Assembly (NCBI RefSeq): GCF_046295735.1
Contig: NZ_JBKBMQ010000001.1
Span: forward strand, 207,254-271,253
From: Allosphingosinicella sp.
Lineage (GTDB): Bacteria > Pseudomonadota > Alphaproteobacteria > Sphingomonadales > Sphingomonadaceae
Length of the DNA stretch: 64,000 nucleotides
Direction: 5' to 3'
Below are positions 32,802-38,176 of the stretch, piece after piece. The notes beneath the pieces were generated by a model. That model was not told the origin of the DNA and did not search any database. It saw only the letters and a program-made list of their open reading frames with translations. Position numbers and translations under genes: made by a program. The stretch's first letter is position 1. Each line of letters starts with the position of its first letter.

Positions 32802-33509
32802 TCAATCCTGCGGGTCGCGGTCCCGGCTCAGCTCGTCCACTTCGCTCATGATCGTCTGCAGCGCCGACTTGTCGGGATCGGTCTCATGCTCGCGGCGCGA
32901 GGGCAGCTTGCCTTCCGCCAGGAGATTCTCGAGCGCGACCCGGCCGCGCGCCACCCGGCTCTTGATCGTGCCGACCGCGCAGCCGCAGATTTCGGCCGCT
33001 TCCTCATAAGCGAAGCCGCCGGCGCCGACCAGGATCAGCGCCTCGCGTTGCGGCTGCGGCAAATGCAGCAGCGCGCGCTGCATGTCGCCGAGCTCGACGT
33101 GCCGGTCCTGGCTCGCCGGAGCGGCGAGCAGCTTGGACGCCGTGATCTCGTCCCATTCGCCCTTGAAGCGCGCGCGGCGCATCTGGCTGAGGAACAGGTT
33201 GCGCAAGATGATGAAGGTCCAGGCGCGCATGTTGGTGCCGGCCTGGAAGCGCTTGCGCGCCGCCCACGCCTTGAGCAACGTCTCCTGGACGAGGTCGTCG
33301 GCGAGGTCCCGGCTGCCCGACAGCGAGCGGCCGAAGGCGCGCAGGTGTGGAATGACCTGCGCCAACTGGTCCTTGAACTCGTTGTCGGGAAGCGGCGTCG
33401 GCTCCAGACTTGCCGCCGCGCCGCTTTCTTCCTCGTCCGTGTCCGCCGGCTTCGCGCCCGCCATCAAGCTTTCCCCGCTCTGTCCGCCGAATCCCAGCGC
33501 TTCACTCAT
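32802..33509 (-). CDS. ecfG: ECF15 sigma factor EcfG (sigmaT) of the general stress response
   Basis: IPHLRAFGRSL, ADDLVQETL, GTNMRAWTFIILRN, GTIKSRVARGR; next to phyR/nepR. Start uncertain. Confidence 0.92.
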   Translation of the reverse strand: MSEALGFGGQSGESLMAGAKPADTDEEESGAAASLEPTPLPDNEFKDQLAQVIPHLRAFGRSLSGSRDLADDLVQETLLKAWAARKRFQAGTNMRAWTFIILRNLFLSQMRRARFKGEWDEITASKLLAAPASQDRHVELGDMQRALLHLPQPQREALILVGAGGFAYEEAAEICGCAVGTIKSRVARGRVALENLLAEGKLPSRREHETDPDKSALQTIMSEVDELSRDRDPQD

Positions 33510-33740: not shown

Positions 33741-33765
33741 AACGCGCGCTCGGCGCGCATGTTCC
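33741..33765 (-). promoter_or_regulatory. EcfG promoter for small protein-ecfG operon
   Basis: Minus strand GGAAC-N16-CGTT, exact consensus. Confidence 0.85.
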
Positions 33766-33771
33766 GGCGGA

Positions 33772-34569
33772 TCAGGCCGGCACCGTCGCGCTGTCGAAGA
33801 ACAGAGCCTGCGCGATCGCCGCCTTCACGGTGGAGCGCTGGAAGGGCTTGGTGATGAGGAAGGTCGGCTCCGGACGCTCGCCGGTCAGCAGCCGTTCCGG
33901 GAAGGCCGTGATGAAGATCACCGGCACCTGGAATTCGGACAATATGTCCTTCACCGCGTCGATGCCCGAACTGTCGTCGGCGAGTTGGATGTCGGCCAGC
34001 ACCAGGCCCGGACGACGGGCCATCGCCTGCTGCACGGCTTCGTCGCGCGTCACGGCGACGCCCGTCACCGTGTGGCCGAGGTCGCGGACGATCGTCTCGA
34101 TGTCCATCGCGATGATCGGCTCGTCCTCGATGATCAGCACTTCGGCGCGGGTCTGCCGCTCGATTTCGGCGAGCGCTTCGGACACCAGCGACTCGACCTC
34201 GTCGGGCGAGGCGCCGATCAGATAGCCGGCATCTTCGGGCGTGAAGCCTTCCATCGCGGTCAGCAGCAGCGCCTGGCGCGACAGCGGCGTGATGCGGGCG
34301 AGGCGGGCCTGGGCGATGCCCTCCGGATCGGCGCCGACGCCGGAATGGCCCGGATCCTCTTCGATATTGGCCGACGACCAGATGGCGTGGAAGGTGCGGT
34401 AGAGGCCGAGCCGCGCCTCGACGTCGCGGGGGAAATCGTCGGGGGCCGCGACGATCGCCTCGAGCGTCGCCCGCACGAAGGCGTCGCCATGCGCCTGGCT
34501 TCCGGTCAGCGCCCGCGCATAGCGGCGGAGGAAGGGGAGATGCGGCGCGAGTTCCTTGCCAAGCGACAT
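33772..34569 (-). CDS. phyR: PhyR anti-anti-sigma response regulator
   Basis: N-terminal sigma-like domain (LPFLRRYARALTGSQ) plus C-terminal receiver (IIEDEPIIA, LADIQLAD, FITAFPE, ITKPF). Confidence 0.96.
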   Translation of the reverse strand: MSLGKELAPHLPFLRRYARALTGSQAHGDAFVRATLEAIVAAPDDFPRDVEARLGLYRTFHAIWSSANIEEDPGHSGVGADPEGIAQARLARITPLSRQALLLTAMEGFTPEDAGYLIGASPDEVESLVSEALAEIERQTRAEVLIIEDEPIIAMDIETIVRDLGHTVTGVAVTRDEAVQQAMARRPGLVLADIQLADDSSGIDAVKDILSEFQVPVIFITAFPERLLTGERPEPTFLITKPFQRSTVKAAIAQALFFDSATVPA

Positions 34570-34869: not shown

Positions 34870-35076
34870 TTGACCTTCAGCATCGACAAGGATGGAGAGA
34901 CCCGGCGCAAGTCCGAGGATGCGGCGGACGATGGCGGGAACGGTGAAGCCGGCGGCACGCGCCGAAAGCGCGGCGCGGCTCCGGAACTCGGCAACGCCCT
35001 TCGCCAGGCCTATGACGAGACGCTGAACGAGGACATTCCGCCGGAAATGCTCGATTTGCTGGGCAAGCTCGGATAA
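34870..35076 (+). CDS. nepR: NepR anti-sigma factor
   Basis: LGNALRQAYDETLNEDIPPEMLDLLGKL core; divergent from phyR; TTG start uncertain. Confidence 0.9.
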   Translation: MTFSIDKDGETRRKSEDAADDGGNGEAGGTRRKRGAAPELGNALRQAYDETLNEDIPPEMLDLLGKLG

Positions 35077-35105: not shown

Positions 35106-36686
35106 GTGGATCAGGACGAACACAAAGGCTCCATGGCCGCCCGCTTCGCGCGGCTCTCGACCGGGCTGAAGATGCTGATCATCCTCAGCCTCGGCCTTCT
35201 GCCGCTCGGCATCGTCGCGATTCTCGCCTCCGTCGACAGCGCGCGCGACAACCGCTCCCGCGGCGAGGTCGAGACCCAGGCGCTGCTGATGGTGAGCGCG
35301 CAGCGGCTGACCTCCGCGCTGGCGCGAAGCTCGATCACCATCCGCGCCGCCAGCGACGCGCTGTCGGATACGCCGCCCGGAAGCGGCACATGCGAACGGA
35401 TGCTGCAGCGTCTCTCCCGCATCCAGCCCTCGCCCGCCCGCTACGCCCTTTACGCCGAGGGCCGGCAATTCCGTTGCGCCACGCCGGGCTTCGCCCCACC
35501 CGCGCAACTGTCCAGCCCGAACGGCGCCCGTTCCGACATCGAACTCGACACCGAGCAGCAGGTGCTGCGCTTCACCCTGTTCGGCGAGGATGGTGAGGTG
35601 GACGGCGTCGGCGAATTCGGCCGCGACGCGCTGCTGGCGCTGGTCGCGCCGCCGGAAATTGCGGGCGCGCACGATCTGAGGCTCGCCCAGGGGGATCGGT
35701 CAATGCTGCTGCGCGAGAATTATCGCGGCGGCCCCTTCACCCGCGAAATCCGGATCGAGCAGCCGATCGCCAGCGGCCGCCTTGCTCTCGACATCCGCGC
35801 CGCCTCGCTGCCGATCACGCCGGCCGAGCTGCTGATGATCCTGCTGCCGGTGATGATGTGGGTCGCGGCCGCCGTGATCGGCTGGCTGATCGTCGACCGG
35901 CTGCTGCTGCGCCCGCTGGTGCGCATGCAGAAGGTGATCTCGAACTATGAGCCCGGCGACCGCGCGCTCGATCTCCCCACCTTGCGCTCGCCGGCGCGGG
36001 AGATCGGCGAACTGGGCCAGGCGTTCGACCGTGTCACCCGGACCGTCGCCCAGCACGAGGCCGAGCTCGAAGCCGCGGTGGAGCGGCAAACGCGGCTGGT
36101 GCGCGAGGTGCACCACCGGGTGAAGAACAACCTTCAGGTGGTCGCCTCCCTGCTCAACCTCCATTCGCGCGGCGCCACCAGCGAGGACGTGGCCGCGGCC
36201 TATGCCTCGATCCAGCGCCGGGTCGACGCGCTCGCCGTCGTCCACCGCAACCATTATGCCGAGCTGGAGGAAAATCGCGGCGTGGCGCTGAAGCCGCTCA
36301 TTTCCGAACTCGCCGCAAACTTGCGCGCCACCGCTCCGGCCTCCGCCGCCCACATGCAGATCCGGCTCGACGTTGAGCCATATTATGCGAACCAGGACGT
36401 GGCGGTCTCGGTCGCCTTCCTGGTGACCGAGATCGTCGAATTCAGCATGCTGTGCGGGGCAAGCCTGGTGTCGGTGTCGCTGACCGGCGCCGACACGGCG
36501 AGCGCCCGCCTCTCGGTCGAGACCGATGCGCTCGCCGGCGAACCTTCCTGCGACGAGCGGCTGATGGAACGGTTCGACCGGATCATCACCGGCCTCGCCC
36601 GCCAGCTGCGCTCCACGCTGGAGCGGGACACGCAGACCGGCCGCTATTCGGTGGTGATCGGCGTCGTCGACAAGGCGGAGCGCTGA
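35106..36686 (+). CDS. Membrane sensor histidine kinase, HisKA_2 type (probable PhyR kinase/phosphatase)
   Basis: Two TMs, HAMP, EVHHRVKNNLQ H-box; HATPase boxes look degenerate; in GSR locus. Confidence 0.85.
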   Translation: MDQDEHKGSMAARFARLSTGLKMLIILSLGLLPLGIVAILASVDSARDNRSRGEVETQALLMVSAQRLTSALARSSITIRAASDALSDTPPGSGTCERMLQRLSRIQPSPARYALYAEGRQFRCATPGFAPPAQLSSPNGARSDIELDTEQQVLRFTLFGEDGEVDGVGEFGRDALLALVAPPEIAGAHDLRLAQGDRSMLLRENYRGGPFTREIRIEQPIASGRLALDIRAASLPITPAELLMILLPVMMWVAAAVIGWLIVDRLLLRPLVRMQKVISNYEPGDRALDLPTLRSPAREIGELGQAFDRVTRTVAQHEAELEAAVERQTRLVREVHHRVKNNLQVVASLLNLHSRGATSEDVAAAYASIQRRVDALAVVHRNHYAELEENRGVALKPLISELAANLRATAPASAAHMQIRLDVEPYYANQDVAVSVAFLVTEIVEFSMLCGASLVSVSLTGADTASARLSVETDALAGEPSCDERLMERFDRIITGLARQLRSTLERDTQTGRYSVVIGVVDKAER

Positions 36687-36698
36687 GGCGAAGCCGCT

Positions 36699-36887
36699 TC
36701 AGGGCGCCGGATCCTCGAGATTGTCCTCCTCGTCCCGATATTCCGGCCGGGCGATGCTTTCCTTCTGGGCGCGGGCGAGGTCGCTTGTGTCCTGGCCGAT
36801 CTCCGTCGCGACGTCGGTGTTGCGGCGTTCGTCCTCATGCACCCCGTCGAGATCCGAATGGGGCGGGGTTTTAGGCGGCTTCGACAT
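36699..36887 (-). CDS. Small acidic hydrophilic protein (62 aa)
   Basis: GAGGAG RBS and EcfG-like promoter upstream. Confidence 0.7.
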   Translation of the reverse strand: MSKPPKTPPHSDLDGVHEDERRNTDVATEIGQDTSDLARAQKESIARPEYRDEEDNLEDPAP

Positions 36888-36914
36888 ATAGGCTCCTCGC
36901 TAGGTTGGAGGATC

Positions 36915-36940
36915 AACCCGGCGCCCGCATCGCCGGTTGC
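36915..36940 (-). promoter_or_regulatory. EcfG-like promoter
   Basis: Minus strand GCAAC-N17-GGTT. Confidence 0.5.
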
Positions 36941-36981
36941 CAAAAAAAATGCGCGGCCATCAATTTTTTCGGGGATCGGAT

Positions 36982-37006
36982 GGAACCCGCGCTCCCCTTC
37001 GTCGTT
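36982..37006 (+). promoter_or_regulatory. EcfG promoter with no downstream ORF (drives putative sRNA)
   Basis: GGAAC-N16-CGTT, exact consensus. Confidence 0.85.
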
Positions 37007-37012
37007 CAGCAC

Positions 37013-37146
37013 TTCGGATAGTGACCTTTTGCCCCCCCGCTCTCGCTATCCAGAAAATGAGCCCGGACGCGCTAACCTCCCCCCCCCCCCCGGTAGCGCC
37101 TCCGGGCTCAACTCTTTCCCGGGGCCTTCCTTCTCTTCAGTCCTGA
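37013..37146 (+). ncRNA. Putative EcfG-dependent sRNA with three C-rich-loop hairpins
   Basis: Hairpins 37016-37051, 37058-37110 and 37120-37145, each with a C/U-rich loop, starting about 10 nt after the -10 element. Ends approximate. Confidence 0.7.
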
Positions 37147-37170
37147 TCGCGACGCCAGCGTTGCCGCTGC

Positions 37171-37196
37171 GGAACAAGCTCGAACGTCGGCGGGTT
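37171..37196 (+). promoter_or_regulatory. EcfG-type promoter for entericidin gene
   Basis: GGAAC-N17-GGTT. Confidence 0.7.
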
Positions 37197-37240
37197 TTCC
37201 ATGCGCGACGTGCGGCTCCGCCGCCTTCAGGAGAGAGACG

Positions 37241-37369
37241 ATGGTACGTAAGCTTCTTGTGACGATGACGATCATGGGCAGCGTGGCCCTTGCCGGCTGC
37301 AACACCCTGCGCGGCGTGGGTCAGGACATCCAGTCGGTGCCGGACTGCGTCCAGGGCCGCACCTGCTGA
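37241..37369 (+). CDS. Entericidin EcnA/B family lipoprotein (42 aa)
   Basis: Hand translation MVRKLLVTMTIMGSVALAGCNTLRGVGQDIQSVPDCVQGRTC; LAGC-NT-xx-GVGQDI signature. Confidence 0.88.
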   Translation: MVRKLLVTMTIMGSVALAGCNTLRGVGQDIQSVPDCVQGRTC

Positions 37370-37390
37370 TCCGACCTTAATCGGACGAAC

Positions 37391-37427
37391 GGCGGCGCCG
37401 CTCCTTCCCGGGAGCGGCGCCGTTTTT
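37391..37427 (+). terminator. Intrinsic terminator
   Basis: CGGCGCCGCTCC / GGAGCGGCGCCG stem followed by TTTTT. Confidence 0.8.
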
Positions 37428-37441
37428 CGTCGCGCGGCCCT

Positions 37442-38176
37442 TCAGCGGGCGCGGCGGGCGGTGACGAAATAATCGAGCGACTTGTCGTCGGTGAGCGCGA
37501 AGCCGCGGGTGACGGAGAAGCCGAGGCCGGTCGTGTCGACCACCTCCAGCCCCGCCTCGCGCAGCAGCGCGCACAGCTCCTCCGGCGTCAGGAACTTCTC
37601 CCAGTCGTGCGTGCCGCGCGGGATCTGGCCCGTGCCTTCGCCAATCACGATCATCAGCAGCCGCGACAGAGTGGTGCGGTTGGGCGTCGACAGGATGAGG
37701 AGCCCGTCCTCGTCCAGGTTGCGGGCGAGGCCCCGCACGAAGGCGGCGGGATCGGCGACATGTTCGATCACCTCCAGCGAGCAGACGAGATCGTAGGGCC
37801 CGGCGAGCGCCTCGACCCCGCCCACGCGATAGTCGATCTCCAGTCCCTGACCCGCGGCGTGGATGCGTGCCGCCTCGATATTCTCGGGCGCGGCGTCGAC
37901 GGCGGTCACCCCGGCACCGAGCCGGGCGAGCGGTTCCGCCAGCAGGCCGGCGCCGCAGCCGACATCGGCCGCCTTGCGCCCCTCGAGCGGGCGGCGGCTG
38001 GTCTCGTCGAGACCCCAGTGGCGGTCGAGCTGCGCGCGGATATAGCCGAGCCGCACCGGGTTCAGCCGGTGGAGCATCGCCGAAGAGCCCTTGGGGTCCC
38101 ACCAGTCGGCCGCCAGCCGGCCGAAATGCGCGGCTTCCCGCGGATCGATCGTGGTCGGGTCGCTTGCATGTGCCAT
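37442..38176 (-). CDS. ubiG: Ubiquinone biosynthesis O-methyltransferase UbiG
   Basis: WWDPKG...LHRLNPVRL, DVGCGAGLL, CSLEVIEHV, STPNRT, GTHDWEKF. Confidence 0.95.
   Translation of the reverse strand: MAHASDPTTIDPREAAHFGRLAADWWDPKGSSAMLHRLNPVRLGYIRAQLDRHWGLDETSRRPLEGRKAADVGCGAGLLAEPLARLGAGVTAVDAAPENIEAARIHAAGQGLEIDYRVGGVEALAGPYDLVCSLEVIEHVADPAAFVRGLARNLDEDGLLILSTPNRTTLSRLLMIVIGEGTGQIPRGTHDWEKFLTPEELCALLREAGLEVVDTTGLGFSVTRGFALTDDKSLDYFVTARRAR

Follow-up and report, generated by a model that had tools for sequence, protein, structure and literature searches.

Among sRNA arms of the alphaproteobacterial general stress response (GSR), only GsrN of Caulobacter has been characterised. The CcsR/cuckoo RNAs are stress-induced sRNAs whose hairpin loops carry C-rich, anti-Shine-Dalgarno-like motifs. 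In Caulobacter crescentus, GsrN (ccna_R0081) is 106 nt long and depends on sigma-T (Tien et al. 2018, PMC5869019). Through six tandem cytosines in a 5' loop it pairs with the G-rich beginning of katG mRNA, as compensatory mutations showed, and its 3' hairpin is the terminator (PMC5869019). GsrN homologues usually adjoin ecfG/nepR/phyR, and those found by BLAST are confined to Caulobacteraceae. "GsrN-like" sRNAs were also predicted beside stress loci in Rhizobiaceae and Bradyrhizobiaceae, the genes outside Caulobacteraceae being called on promoter, position and a C-rich 5' loop, and Erythrobacter litoralis, the sole Sphingomonadales species in that study, had no apparent gsrN-like gene (PMC5869019). 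The only sRNA characterised in Sphingopyxis granuli TFA is SuhB of the alpha-r8/MmgR family, which is Hfq-associated and whose deletion leads to sensitivity to several stresses; a LysR-type regulator controls it, and its regulon has little overlap with that of the stress response (bioRxiv 10.64898/2025.12.09.693200). The terms small, non-coding, intergenic and antisense RNA are absent from the paper on the stress transcriptome of S. melonis Fr1 (PMC6599016), and the stress regulon of S. granuli TFA was defined in coding genes only (PMC7083833).

In this work, a conserved RNA element was analysed in a 64-kb stretch of sphingomonad DNA, which is referred to below as the window. No earlier description of the element was found in the literature on GsrN, GSR or EcfG small RNAs in Sphingomonas and Sphingomonadaceae. 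We consider it likely, with a good degree of confidence, that positions 36982-37119 are an independent gene for a trans-acting, base-pairing GSR sRNA of about 105 nt that is driven by EcfG. The element and its relatives very probably form a new sphingomonad family of GsrN-like stress sRNAs, as far as comparison of genomes can tell. An earlier note on this DNA had proposed a candidate new sphingomonad GSR sRNA behind an EcfG promoter, and this core reading holds at the comparative-genomics level; the promoter and hairpin motifs that it quoted are all present at their positions. The element is a well-supported candidate for the missing sRNA arm in sphingomonads, bacteria of leaf surfaces, soil and bioremediation.

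Likeness to known stress sRNAs

The sphingomonad RNA and GsrN are alike in design. They share the GGAAC-N16-CGTT promoter with an A-tract upstream, a length of about 105 nt, the octamer GCCCCCCG (a run of 6-7 C flanked by G and exposed in the 5' loop), a 3' hairpin as the predicted intrinsic terminator, and the usual place beside ecfG/nepR/phyR. They differ in the setting of the C-tract, which lies in an internal loop of a long stem enclosing a second hairpin in GsrN, whereas in the sphingomonad RNA it forms a terminal loop. A second C-run in the terminator loop is a feature of the sphingomonad RNA, unlike GsrN, and the katG leader of the host genome, unlike that of Caulobacter, has no G-rich site. 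At the level of sequence no relation was detected. The gsrN locus was taken from the supplement of Tien et al. 2018 (PMC5869019), and an nhmmer search with the profile of 69 aligned sphingomonad sequences gave no match to it even at E <= 100. Membership of the GsrN sequence family was therefore rejected, because nhmmer and two covariance models were negative. The features by which GsrN-like genes are recognised gave a different picture: the promoter is present (GGAAC-N16-CGTT, 36982-37006), the ecfG/nepR/phyR locus is close by, and the cytosine-rich 5' loop is exposed according to the folds and the covariation of its stem, while pairing of the C-tract with an mRNA leader, considered here for katG only, was not found in the host genome. 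The RNA therefore agrees with the functional class in every property tested save katG pairing, and it falls outside the GsrN sequence family.

The likeness to the CcsR/cuckoo RNAs (Rfam CcsR1, RF02791; Rhodobacter and other Alphaproteobacteria) lies in the C-rich loops, loop 2 of the sphingomonad RNA often being CCUCCCCCC. CcsR/cuckoo RNAs occur in tandem and in multiple copies with CCUCCUCCC loops, whereas the sphingomonad RNA is single copy, has an EcfG promoter and gives no RF02791 match. The RNA was not assigned to the CcsR/cuckoo RNAs, since their Rfam model gave no match over it and there is no tandem array. The comparison with GsrN and cuckoo drawn in the earlier note stands as a likeness of design; a relationship is undetectable by sequence or covariance model. 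SuhB comes from the same bacterial family as the new RNA and differs from it in control, which is LysR-type for SuhB and involves an EcfG-type promoter here. The same design without sequence similarity to GsrN raises the question of whether C-rich-loop stress sRNAs had a single origin followed by divergence, or arose repeatedly.

The GSR locus and its EcfG-type promoters

The GSR locus is complete in the window and lies directly upstream of the element. It comprises an ECF sigma gene that is taken as ecfG (32802-33509, minus strand), phyR (33772-34569, minus; Pfam PhyR_sigma2, PhyR_sigma-like and Response_reg), nepR (34870-35076, plus; Pfam NepR) and a HisKA_2/HWE histidine kinase gene (35106-36686, plus). 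A 62-aa acidic ORF (36699-36887, minus) is found 3' of the kinase gene, and the 353-nt gap between this ORF and the gene of a 42-aa entericidin-like lipoprotein (37241-37369, plus) houses the element. The lipoprotein has a weak match to Pfam Entericidin (E = 0.004) and the lipobox LAGC; its gene is followed by a strong terminator, beyond which a UbiG-like methyltransferase gene lies on the minus strand.

The EcfG-type promoter of the element consists of the -35 box GGAAC (36982-36986), a 16-nt spacer and the -10 box CGTT (37003-37006) on the plus strand. It is an exact match, as had been claimed, and the comparison of homologues gives it its weight: GGAAC stands at an identical offset in all 69 aligned homologues, the 16-nt spacer is kept in 66 of them, and the -10 element reads xxTT in 69/69 (CGTT 54, GGTT 9, TGTT 3, CATT 2, AATT 1), while the sequence of the spacer drifts. 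The same-genus alignment likewise shows an invariant GGAAC and CGTT around a variable 16-nt spacer. All 49 matches outside the genus were inspected, and each has GGAAC, a spacer of 16-17 nt, xxTT, a fixed distance to hairpin 1 and an A/T tract upstream. In the window this tract (A8 ... T6, 36940-36972, plus) lies 10-40 nt upstream of the -35 box. An A/T run is found at the same place 5' of GGAAC in nearly all relatives, where the remaining spacer varies, and it is possibly a UP-like element. The rarity of the promoter motif taken alone is weak evidence: exact GGAAC-N16/17-CGTT occurs twice in the 64-kb window versus 0.6 times in shuffles. The only other exact GGAAC-N16-CGTT in the window (33741-33765, minus strand) is located between the phyR stop and the ecfG start, which is consistent with autoregulated transcription of ecfG.

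The next gene had also been credited with its own EcfG promoter. Its GGAAC (37171-37175) is indeed kept in most relatives, but the promoter as a whole (GGAAC-N17-GGTT, 37171-37196, plus) is near-consensus and not exact. This promoter and the lipoprotein gene make up a neighbouring unit (37171-37369, plus), which is a frequent downstream partner of the sRNA and lies outside it. Upstream of the 62-aa acidic ORF, a GCAAC-N16/17-GGTT motif was observed at 36888-36945 on the minus strand, and GCAAC has been reported to be the second most common -35 box among the stress promoters of S. granuli (PMC7083833). If this motif is a promoter, three EcfG-type promoters lie within about 300 bp.

Anatomy and covariation of the RNA

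The predicted transcript is about 105 nt long (about 37013-37119, plus). Its 5' end was set 6-10 nt past the -10 element by analogy with GsrN numbering and its 3' end in the U-rich tail behind hairpin 2, so both ends are estimates. Hairpin 1 (37016-37051, plus) has a 9-bp stem, in which GGATAGTGA (37016-37024) pairs with TCGCTATCC (37043-37051), and an 18-nt loop, CCUUUUGCCCCCCCGCUC (37025-37042), which had been quoted as CCTTTTGCCCCCCCGCTC and is the putative seed. Across the 69 sequences, 8 of the 9 pairs are changed on both sides and 99.7% of the cells are paired. Within the genus, hairpin 1 and its loop hardly vary at all. The loop itself is unpaired in both the minimum-energy and the centroid fold of RNAfold. 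Its core, GCCCCCC(C)GCUC, is nearly invariant, with a C-run of 5-10 (mode 7) among the 69 copies, and the loop with the adjoining 3' arm (UGCCCCCCCGCUCUCGCU) is invariant across 18 nt in more than 70 named genomes. Hairpin 1 is followed by a single-stranded A-rich linker, AGAAAA (37052-37057, plus), which is mostly AGAACA or ACGACA in the aligned relatives. This linker may be a binding site for Hfq, which the host genome encodes; the Hfq gene (C5:38313-38750 of the host's own genome, minus strand) is an open frame of 209 aa in which the Hfq domain occurs twice in tandem.

Hairpin 2 (37058-37110, plus) has an interrupted stem of 18 bp, made up of TGAGCCCGGA/TCCGGGCTCA and GCGCTA/TAGCGC, and a C-rich loop of U-C13 (37078-37091), which is a possible second seed. 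Compensatory changes affect 16 of its 18 pairs across the family, and they are already visible within the genus, where GCGCUA/UAGCGC becomes GCGCCA/UGGCGC and GAGCCC/GGGCUC becomes GGGCCC/GGGCCC or GGACCC/GGGUCC. The C-run of the loop varies from 7 to 13 within the genus, the C13 of the window being the maximum, and in relatives the loop often takes the CCUCCCCCC form mentioned above. Behind the stem the window has a U-rich tail, ACUCUUUCC (37111-37119, plus), which is degraded. The tails of relatives contain T-runs such as AACUUUUUU or AAAUUUUU, with AACTTTTTT and AAATTTTT as examples from the same genus, and the 14 nt past the stem contain a mean of 6 T among the homologues. Since a T-run directly follows hairpin 2 in nearly all relatives, this 3' hairpin is a predicted intrinsic terminator. 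A simple terminator scan flagged nothing at the element, where the loop of hairpin 2 exceeds the 8-nt limit of the scan.

RNAfold, a check that had been proposed for the locus, recovered three stems with -52.2 kcal/mol and z = -5.3 relative to shuffles. Three tandem hairpins with C-rich loops had been described, of which the first two are conserved and covarying. The third, CGGGGC (37120-37125) pairing with GTCCTG (37140-37145), forms a weak stem in which two of the 6 bp are G-U, and the alignment holds no counterpart in any of 23 same-genus relatives. Hairpin 3 is thus no more than a chance fold, and it was dropped from the element as unalignable in relatives and 3' of the RNA end. Because the alignment collapses beyond the T-run and hairpin 3 is unmatched, the conserved unit consists of the promoter, two hairpins and the U-tail, which is what would be expected of an sRNA of about 105 nt with Rho-independent termination.

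The structural conservation sought in orthologous GSR loci was found. In the 69-sequence alignment, which was fitted to a covariance model and for this reason favours the structure, 24 of 27 base pairs are changed on both sides and 96.7% of the cells are paired, a share that falls to 32-41% if partners are displaced by one to three columns; the observed values were not reached by any of 500 shuffles. A genus-only MAFFT alignment gives the same picture of covariation. The promoter with hairpins 1 and 2 is far beyond chance. The 69 aligned sequences and 24 covarying pairs provide a clean new family for Rfam.

Both hairpins are also inverted repeats at the level of DNA and are situated between converging and diverging stress genes, so that the conserved unit could be a DNA element, an EcfG promoter with protein-binding repeats that insulate or terminate neighbouring genes, and not a functional RNA. 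We regard this as very improbable. The compensatory changes pass through G-U intermediates (for example, one pair of hairpin 1 is U-G in 35 sequences versus C-G in 32), which points to plus-strand RNA and not to a DNA palindrome. Furthermore, the C-rich loops are strand-specific, the T-run occurs on one strand and the distance to the promoter is fixed, as is expected of a transcribed RNA, and the model scores 22-36 bits on the reverse strand against 37-135 bits on the forward strand.

Neither a protein nor a repeat accounts for the element. That no ORF stands behind the promoter was borne out, the only mechanical ORF across it having 69 aa and a TTG start. A coding element was rejected on the grounds that poly-C indels are not multiples of three and an internal ATG is lost in other genera, and a repeat or mobile element on the grounds of a single copy per genome. 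With Rfam 15 (E <= 10, 36500-37700), the check that had been suggested against GsrN and cuckoo models, no family was found over 36982-37146, and a scan of 17 loci from diverse genera at gathering thresholds gave no matches. CcsR1 is absent at the element; its sole match in the region (37344-37428) has 18 bits against a gathering score of 65 and is noise. No Rfam suhB match was obtained at the locus. A sub-threshold match to BcKCsr2 of Burkholderia was observed at 37323-37428 on the plus strand (29.6 bits versus a gathering score of 40); it spans the 3' end of the lipoprotein gene and the terminator, and the terminator by itself is its most likely cause.

Distribution, gene neighbourhood and possible mode of action

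By BLAST, the block 36980-37120 was found in 23 of 24 other genomes of the genus at 78-91% identity, and it is better conserved than the lipoprotein gene, which reaches about 75% identity in those genomes where it could be detected. The same search of relatives gave no match in other families of the order. Covariance model R1, built from 24 genus sequences, found exactly one match in 79 of 201 genomes and 46 of 112 genera of the same GTDB family. These figures rest on stringent filtering and a single model lineage, and diverged copies may therefore exist in genera that gave no match. Wherever a genome has a match, it is full length. Model R2, derived from the 69 aligned sequences, gave the same distribution, with matches only within the family. 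In 400 genomes spread across the class, R1 returned nothing credible, its two marginal matches being a terminator and a coding region; R2 gave two marginal matches outside the family, which are promoter-less C-rich hairpins without GGAAC. These four matches were not counted as homologues for lack of a GGAAC promoter.

The 18-mer TGCCCCCCCGCTCTCGCT was found in at least 120 stretches of named genomes. Among the matches listed are Sphingomonas, Sphingobium, Allosphingosinicella, Sphingomicrobium, Sphingosinicella, Sphingorhabdus and Stakelama, and the Sphingomonas carriers among them include the lab-tractable strains Leaf21 and Leaf242 as well as S. parapaucimobilis, S. trueperi and S. yunnanensis. 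A full-length model match was obtained at 71 of the 73 18-mer loci tested. An exact 18-mer match in a Phycisphaeraceae MAG gave no model match and was set aside as chance. In another alphaproteobacterial family, an 84-nt C-rich element (CCCCCUUCCCCCCCCGCGGGCAA; L234, G454:C2:157569-157652) is followed by a clean terminator. No GGAAC promoter was seen in the nearest 60 nt, and the element is perhaps a C-rich sRNA without relation to the present one.

The RNA is usually found at the stress locus. The locus, with at least phyR and the kinase detected, lies directly upstream of the RNA in 12 of 20 distant genera; among the evaluable named loci, the kinase gene ends no more than 600 nt before the RNA in 56 of 59, and PhyR is encoded upstream in 49 of 50. 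Downstream, an entericidin-like ORF on the same strand was found in 14 of the 20 distant genera, five of which have no stress locus nearby, and in 39 of 69 named loci, a count obtained with tblastn, which is weak for a 42-aa query.

The partnership with the lipoprotein gene could mean that the conserved hairpins are a cis-acting leader or attenuator. Transcription would then read through from 36982 to give one mRNA ending at the terminator near 37427, and the hairpins would control the read-through or the translation of the lipoprotein. The weak U-tail behind hairpin 2 in the window fits this explanation, as does a long fold in which the non-conserved positions 37130-37140 pair with the Shine-Dalgarno region of the lipoprotein gene. 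Nevertheless, we consider it quite unlikely. In most relatives a proper T-run stands behind hairpin 2, a separate conserved GGAAC promoter, situated between the two units, serves the lipoprotein gene, and the 100-200 nt from the RNA to this gene are conserved in neither sequence nor length. Moreover, no Ecn-like ORF is detectable at 30 of the 69 named loci, and no pairing of the loops with the ecn leader is predicted, the energy being about -9.5 kcal/mol where the genome mean is -16.9. The earlier idea that the sRNA is processed from a read-through transcript ending at 37427 is likewise unnecessary, because hairpin 2 would be its own terminator, although termination in the window may leak into the lipoprotein gene.

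For an independent sRNA gene we hypothesize the following course. PhyR would free EcfG from NepR, and EcfG-RNA polymerase would initiate at GGAAC-N16-CGTT, with transcription ending at hairpin 2. Two C-runs would be exposed on the RNA, one in the 18-nt loop that caps the 5' hairpin (GCCCCCCCGCUC) and the other in the loop of the terminator. Loop 1, and perhaps a loop 2 of the CCUCCCCCC type, would pair with G-rich mRNA leaders or ribosome-binding sites, probably assisted by Hfq. The outcome would be a post-transcriptional layer on the EcfG regulon, comparable to GsrN in Caulobacter and close to the "multi-seed post-transcriptional arm" that the earlier note had supposed. Transcription from this promoter in dependence on EcfG is what its conserved boxes lead us to infer, and the mechanism of pairing is suggested by the anatomy of the RNA together with the GsrN precedent.

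The target search was made without gene annotation or a comparative step, in a host genome of 69% G+C that contains about 800 G-runs of at least 6. A duplex-energy scan of 6,307 heuristic start regions gave a broad continuum with no outlier, its specificity being too low. Exact 11-mer complements of the loop core were depleted, with 8 non-self sites versus about 24 expected from base composition. The best-placed exact complement of the loop core, GAGCGGGGGGC (C3:70651-70666 of the own genome), lies across the junction of two genes, where it overlaps both the stop of an ECF sigma gene and, for the membrane anti-sigma gene behind it, the start with its ribosome-binding site; it was rejected as a conserved target, the G-run being absent at this junction in 14 relatives. 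The katG gene was also rejected, as its leader upstream of C1:88283 has no G-tract. At the stress locus, pairing of the loops with the leaders of phyR, nepR, the kinase, ecfG, the 62-aa protein and ecn did not exceed the genome average. The duplex, exact-complement, katG and stress-locus searches brought no conserved mRNA target to light.

This outcome, like the depletion of complementary 11-mers, would also suit an RNA that acts mainly through protein binding, as the sponge or cofactor of a protein that binds poly(C) or U, with the invariance of the loop reflecting protein contact. The 18 invariant nucleotides of loop and 3' arm are longer than a typical seed, which leaves room for a protein partner. 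On the other hand, no candidate protein is known, the target search was crude for the reasons given, and the closest functional precedent, GsrN, pairs via its C-tract as compensatory mutations showed (PMC5869019). We therefore give protein binding as the main action only a slight chance. A somewhat broader idea, which we think doubtful but not negligible, is that the RNA and the entericidin-like lipoprotein are the two parts of a conserved two-gene stress module, or that the RNA binds a protein which recognises the invariant 18-nt C-rich loop. The idea of a module arises because the two genes stay together in genera in which the RNA is no longer found at the stress locus. If either were true, it would be a mode of action undescribed for EcfG-dependent sRNAs. 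A trans-acting, base-pairing sRNA remains our preferred reading.

Apart from the RNA, poly-G/poly-C tracts of up to 23 nt were observed to cluster at contig ends of the host's own genome (for example C9:23-67, C12:14509-14542 and C6:196185-196244), and such long tracts probably cause assembly breaks.
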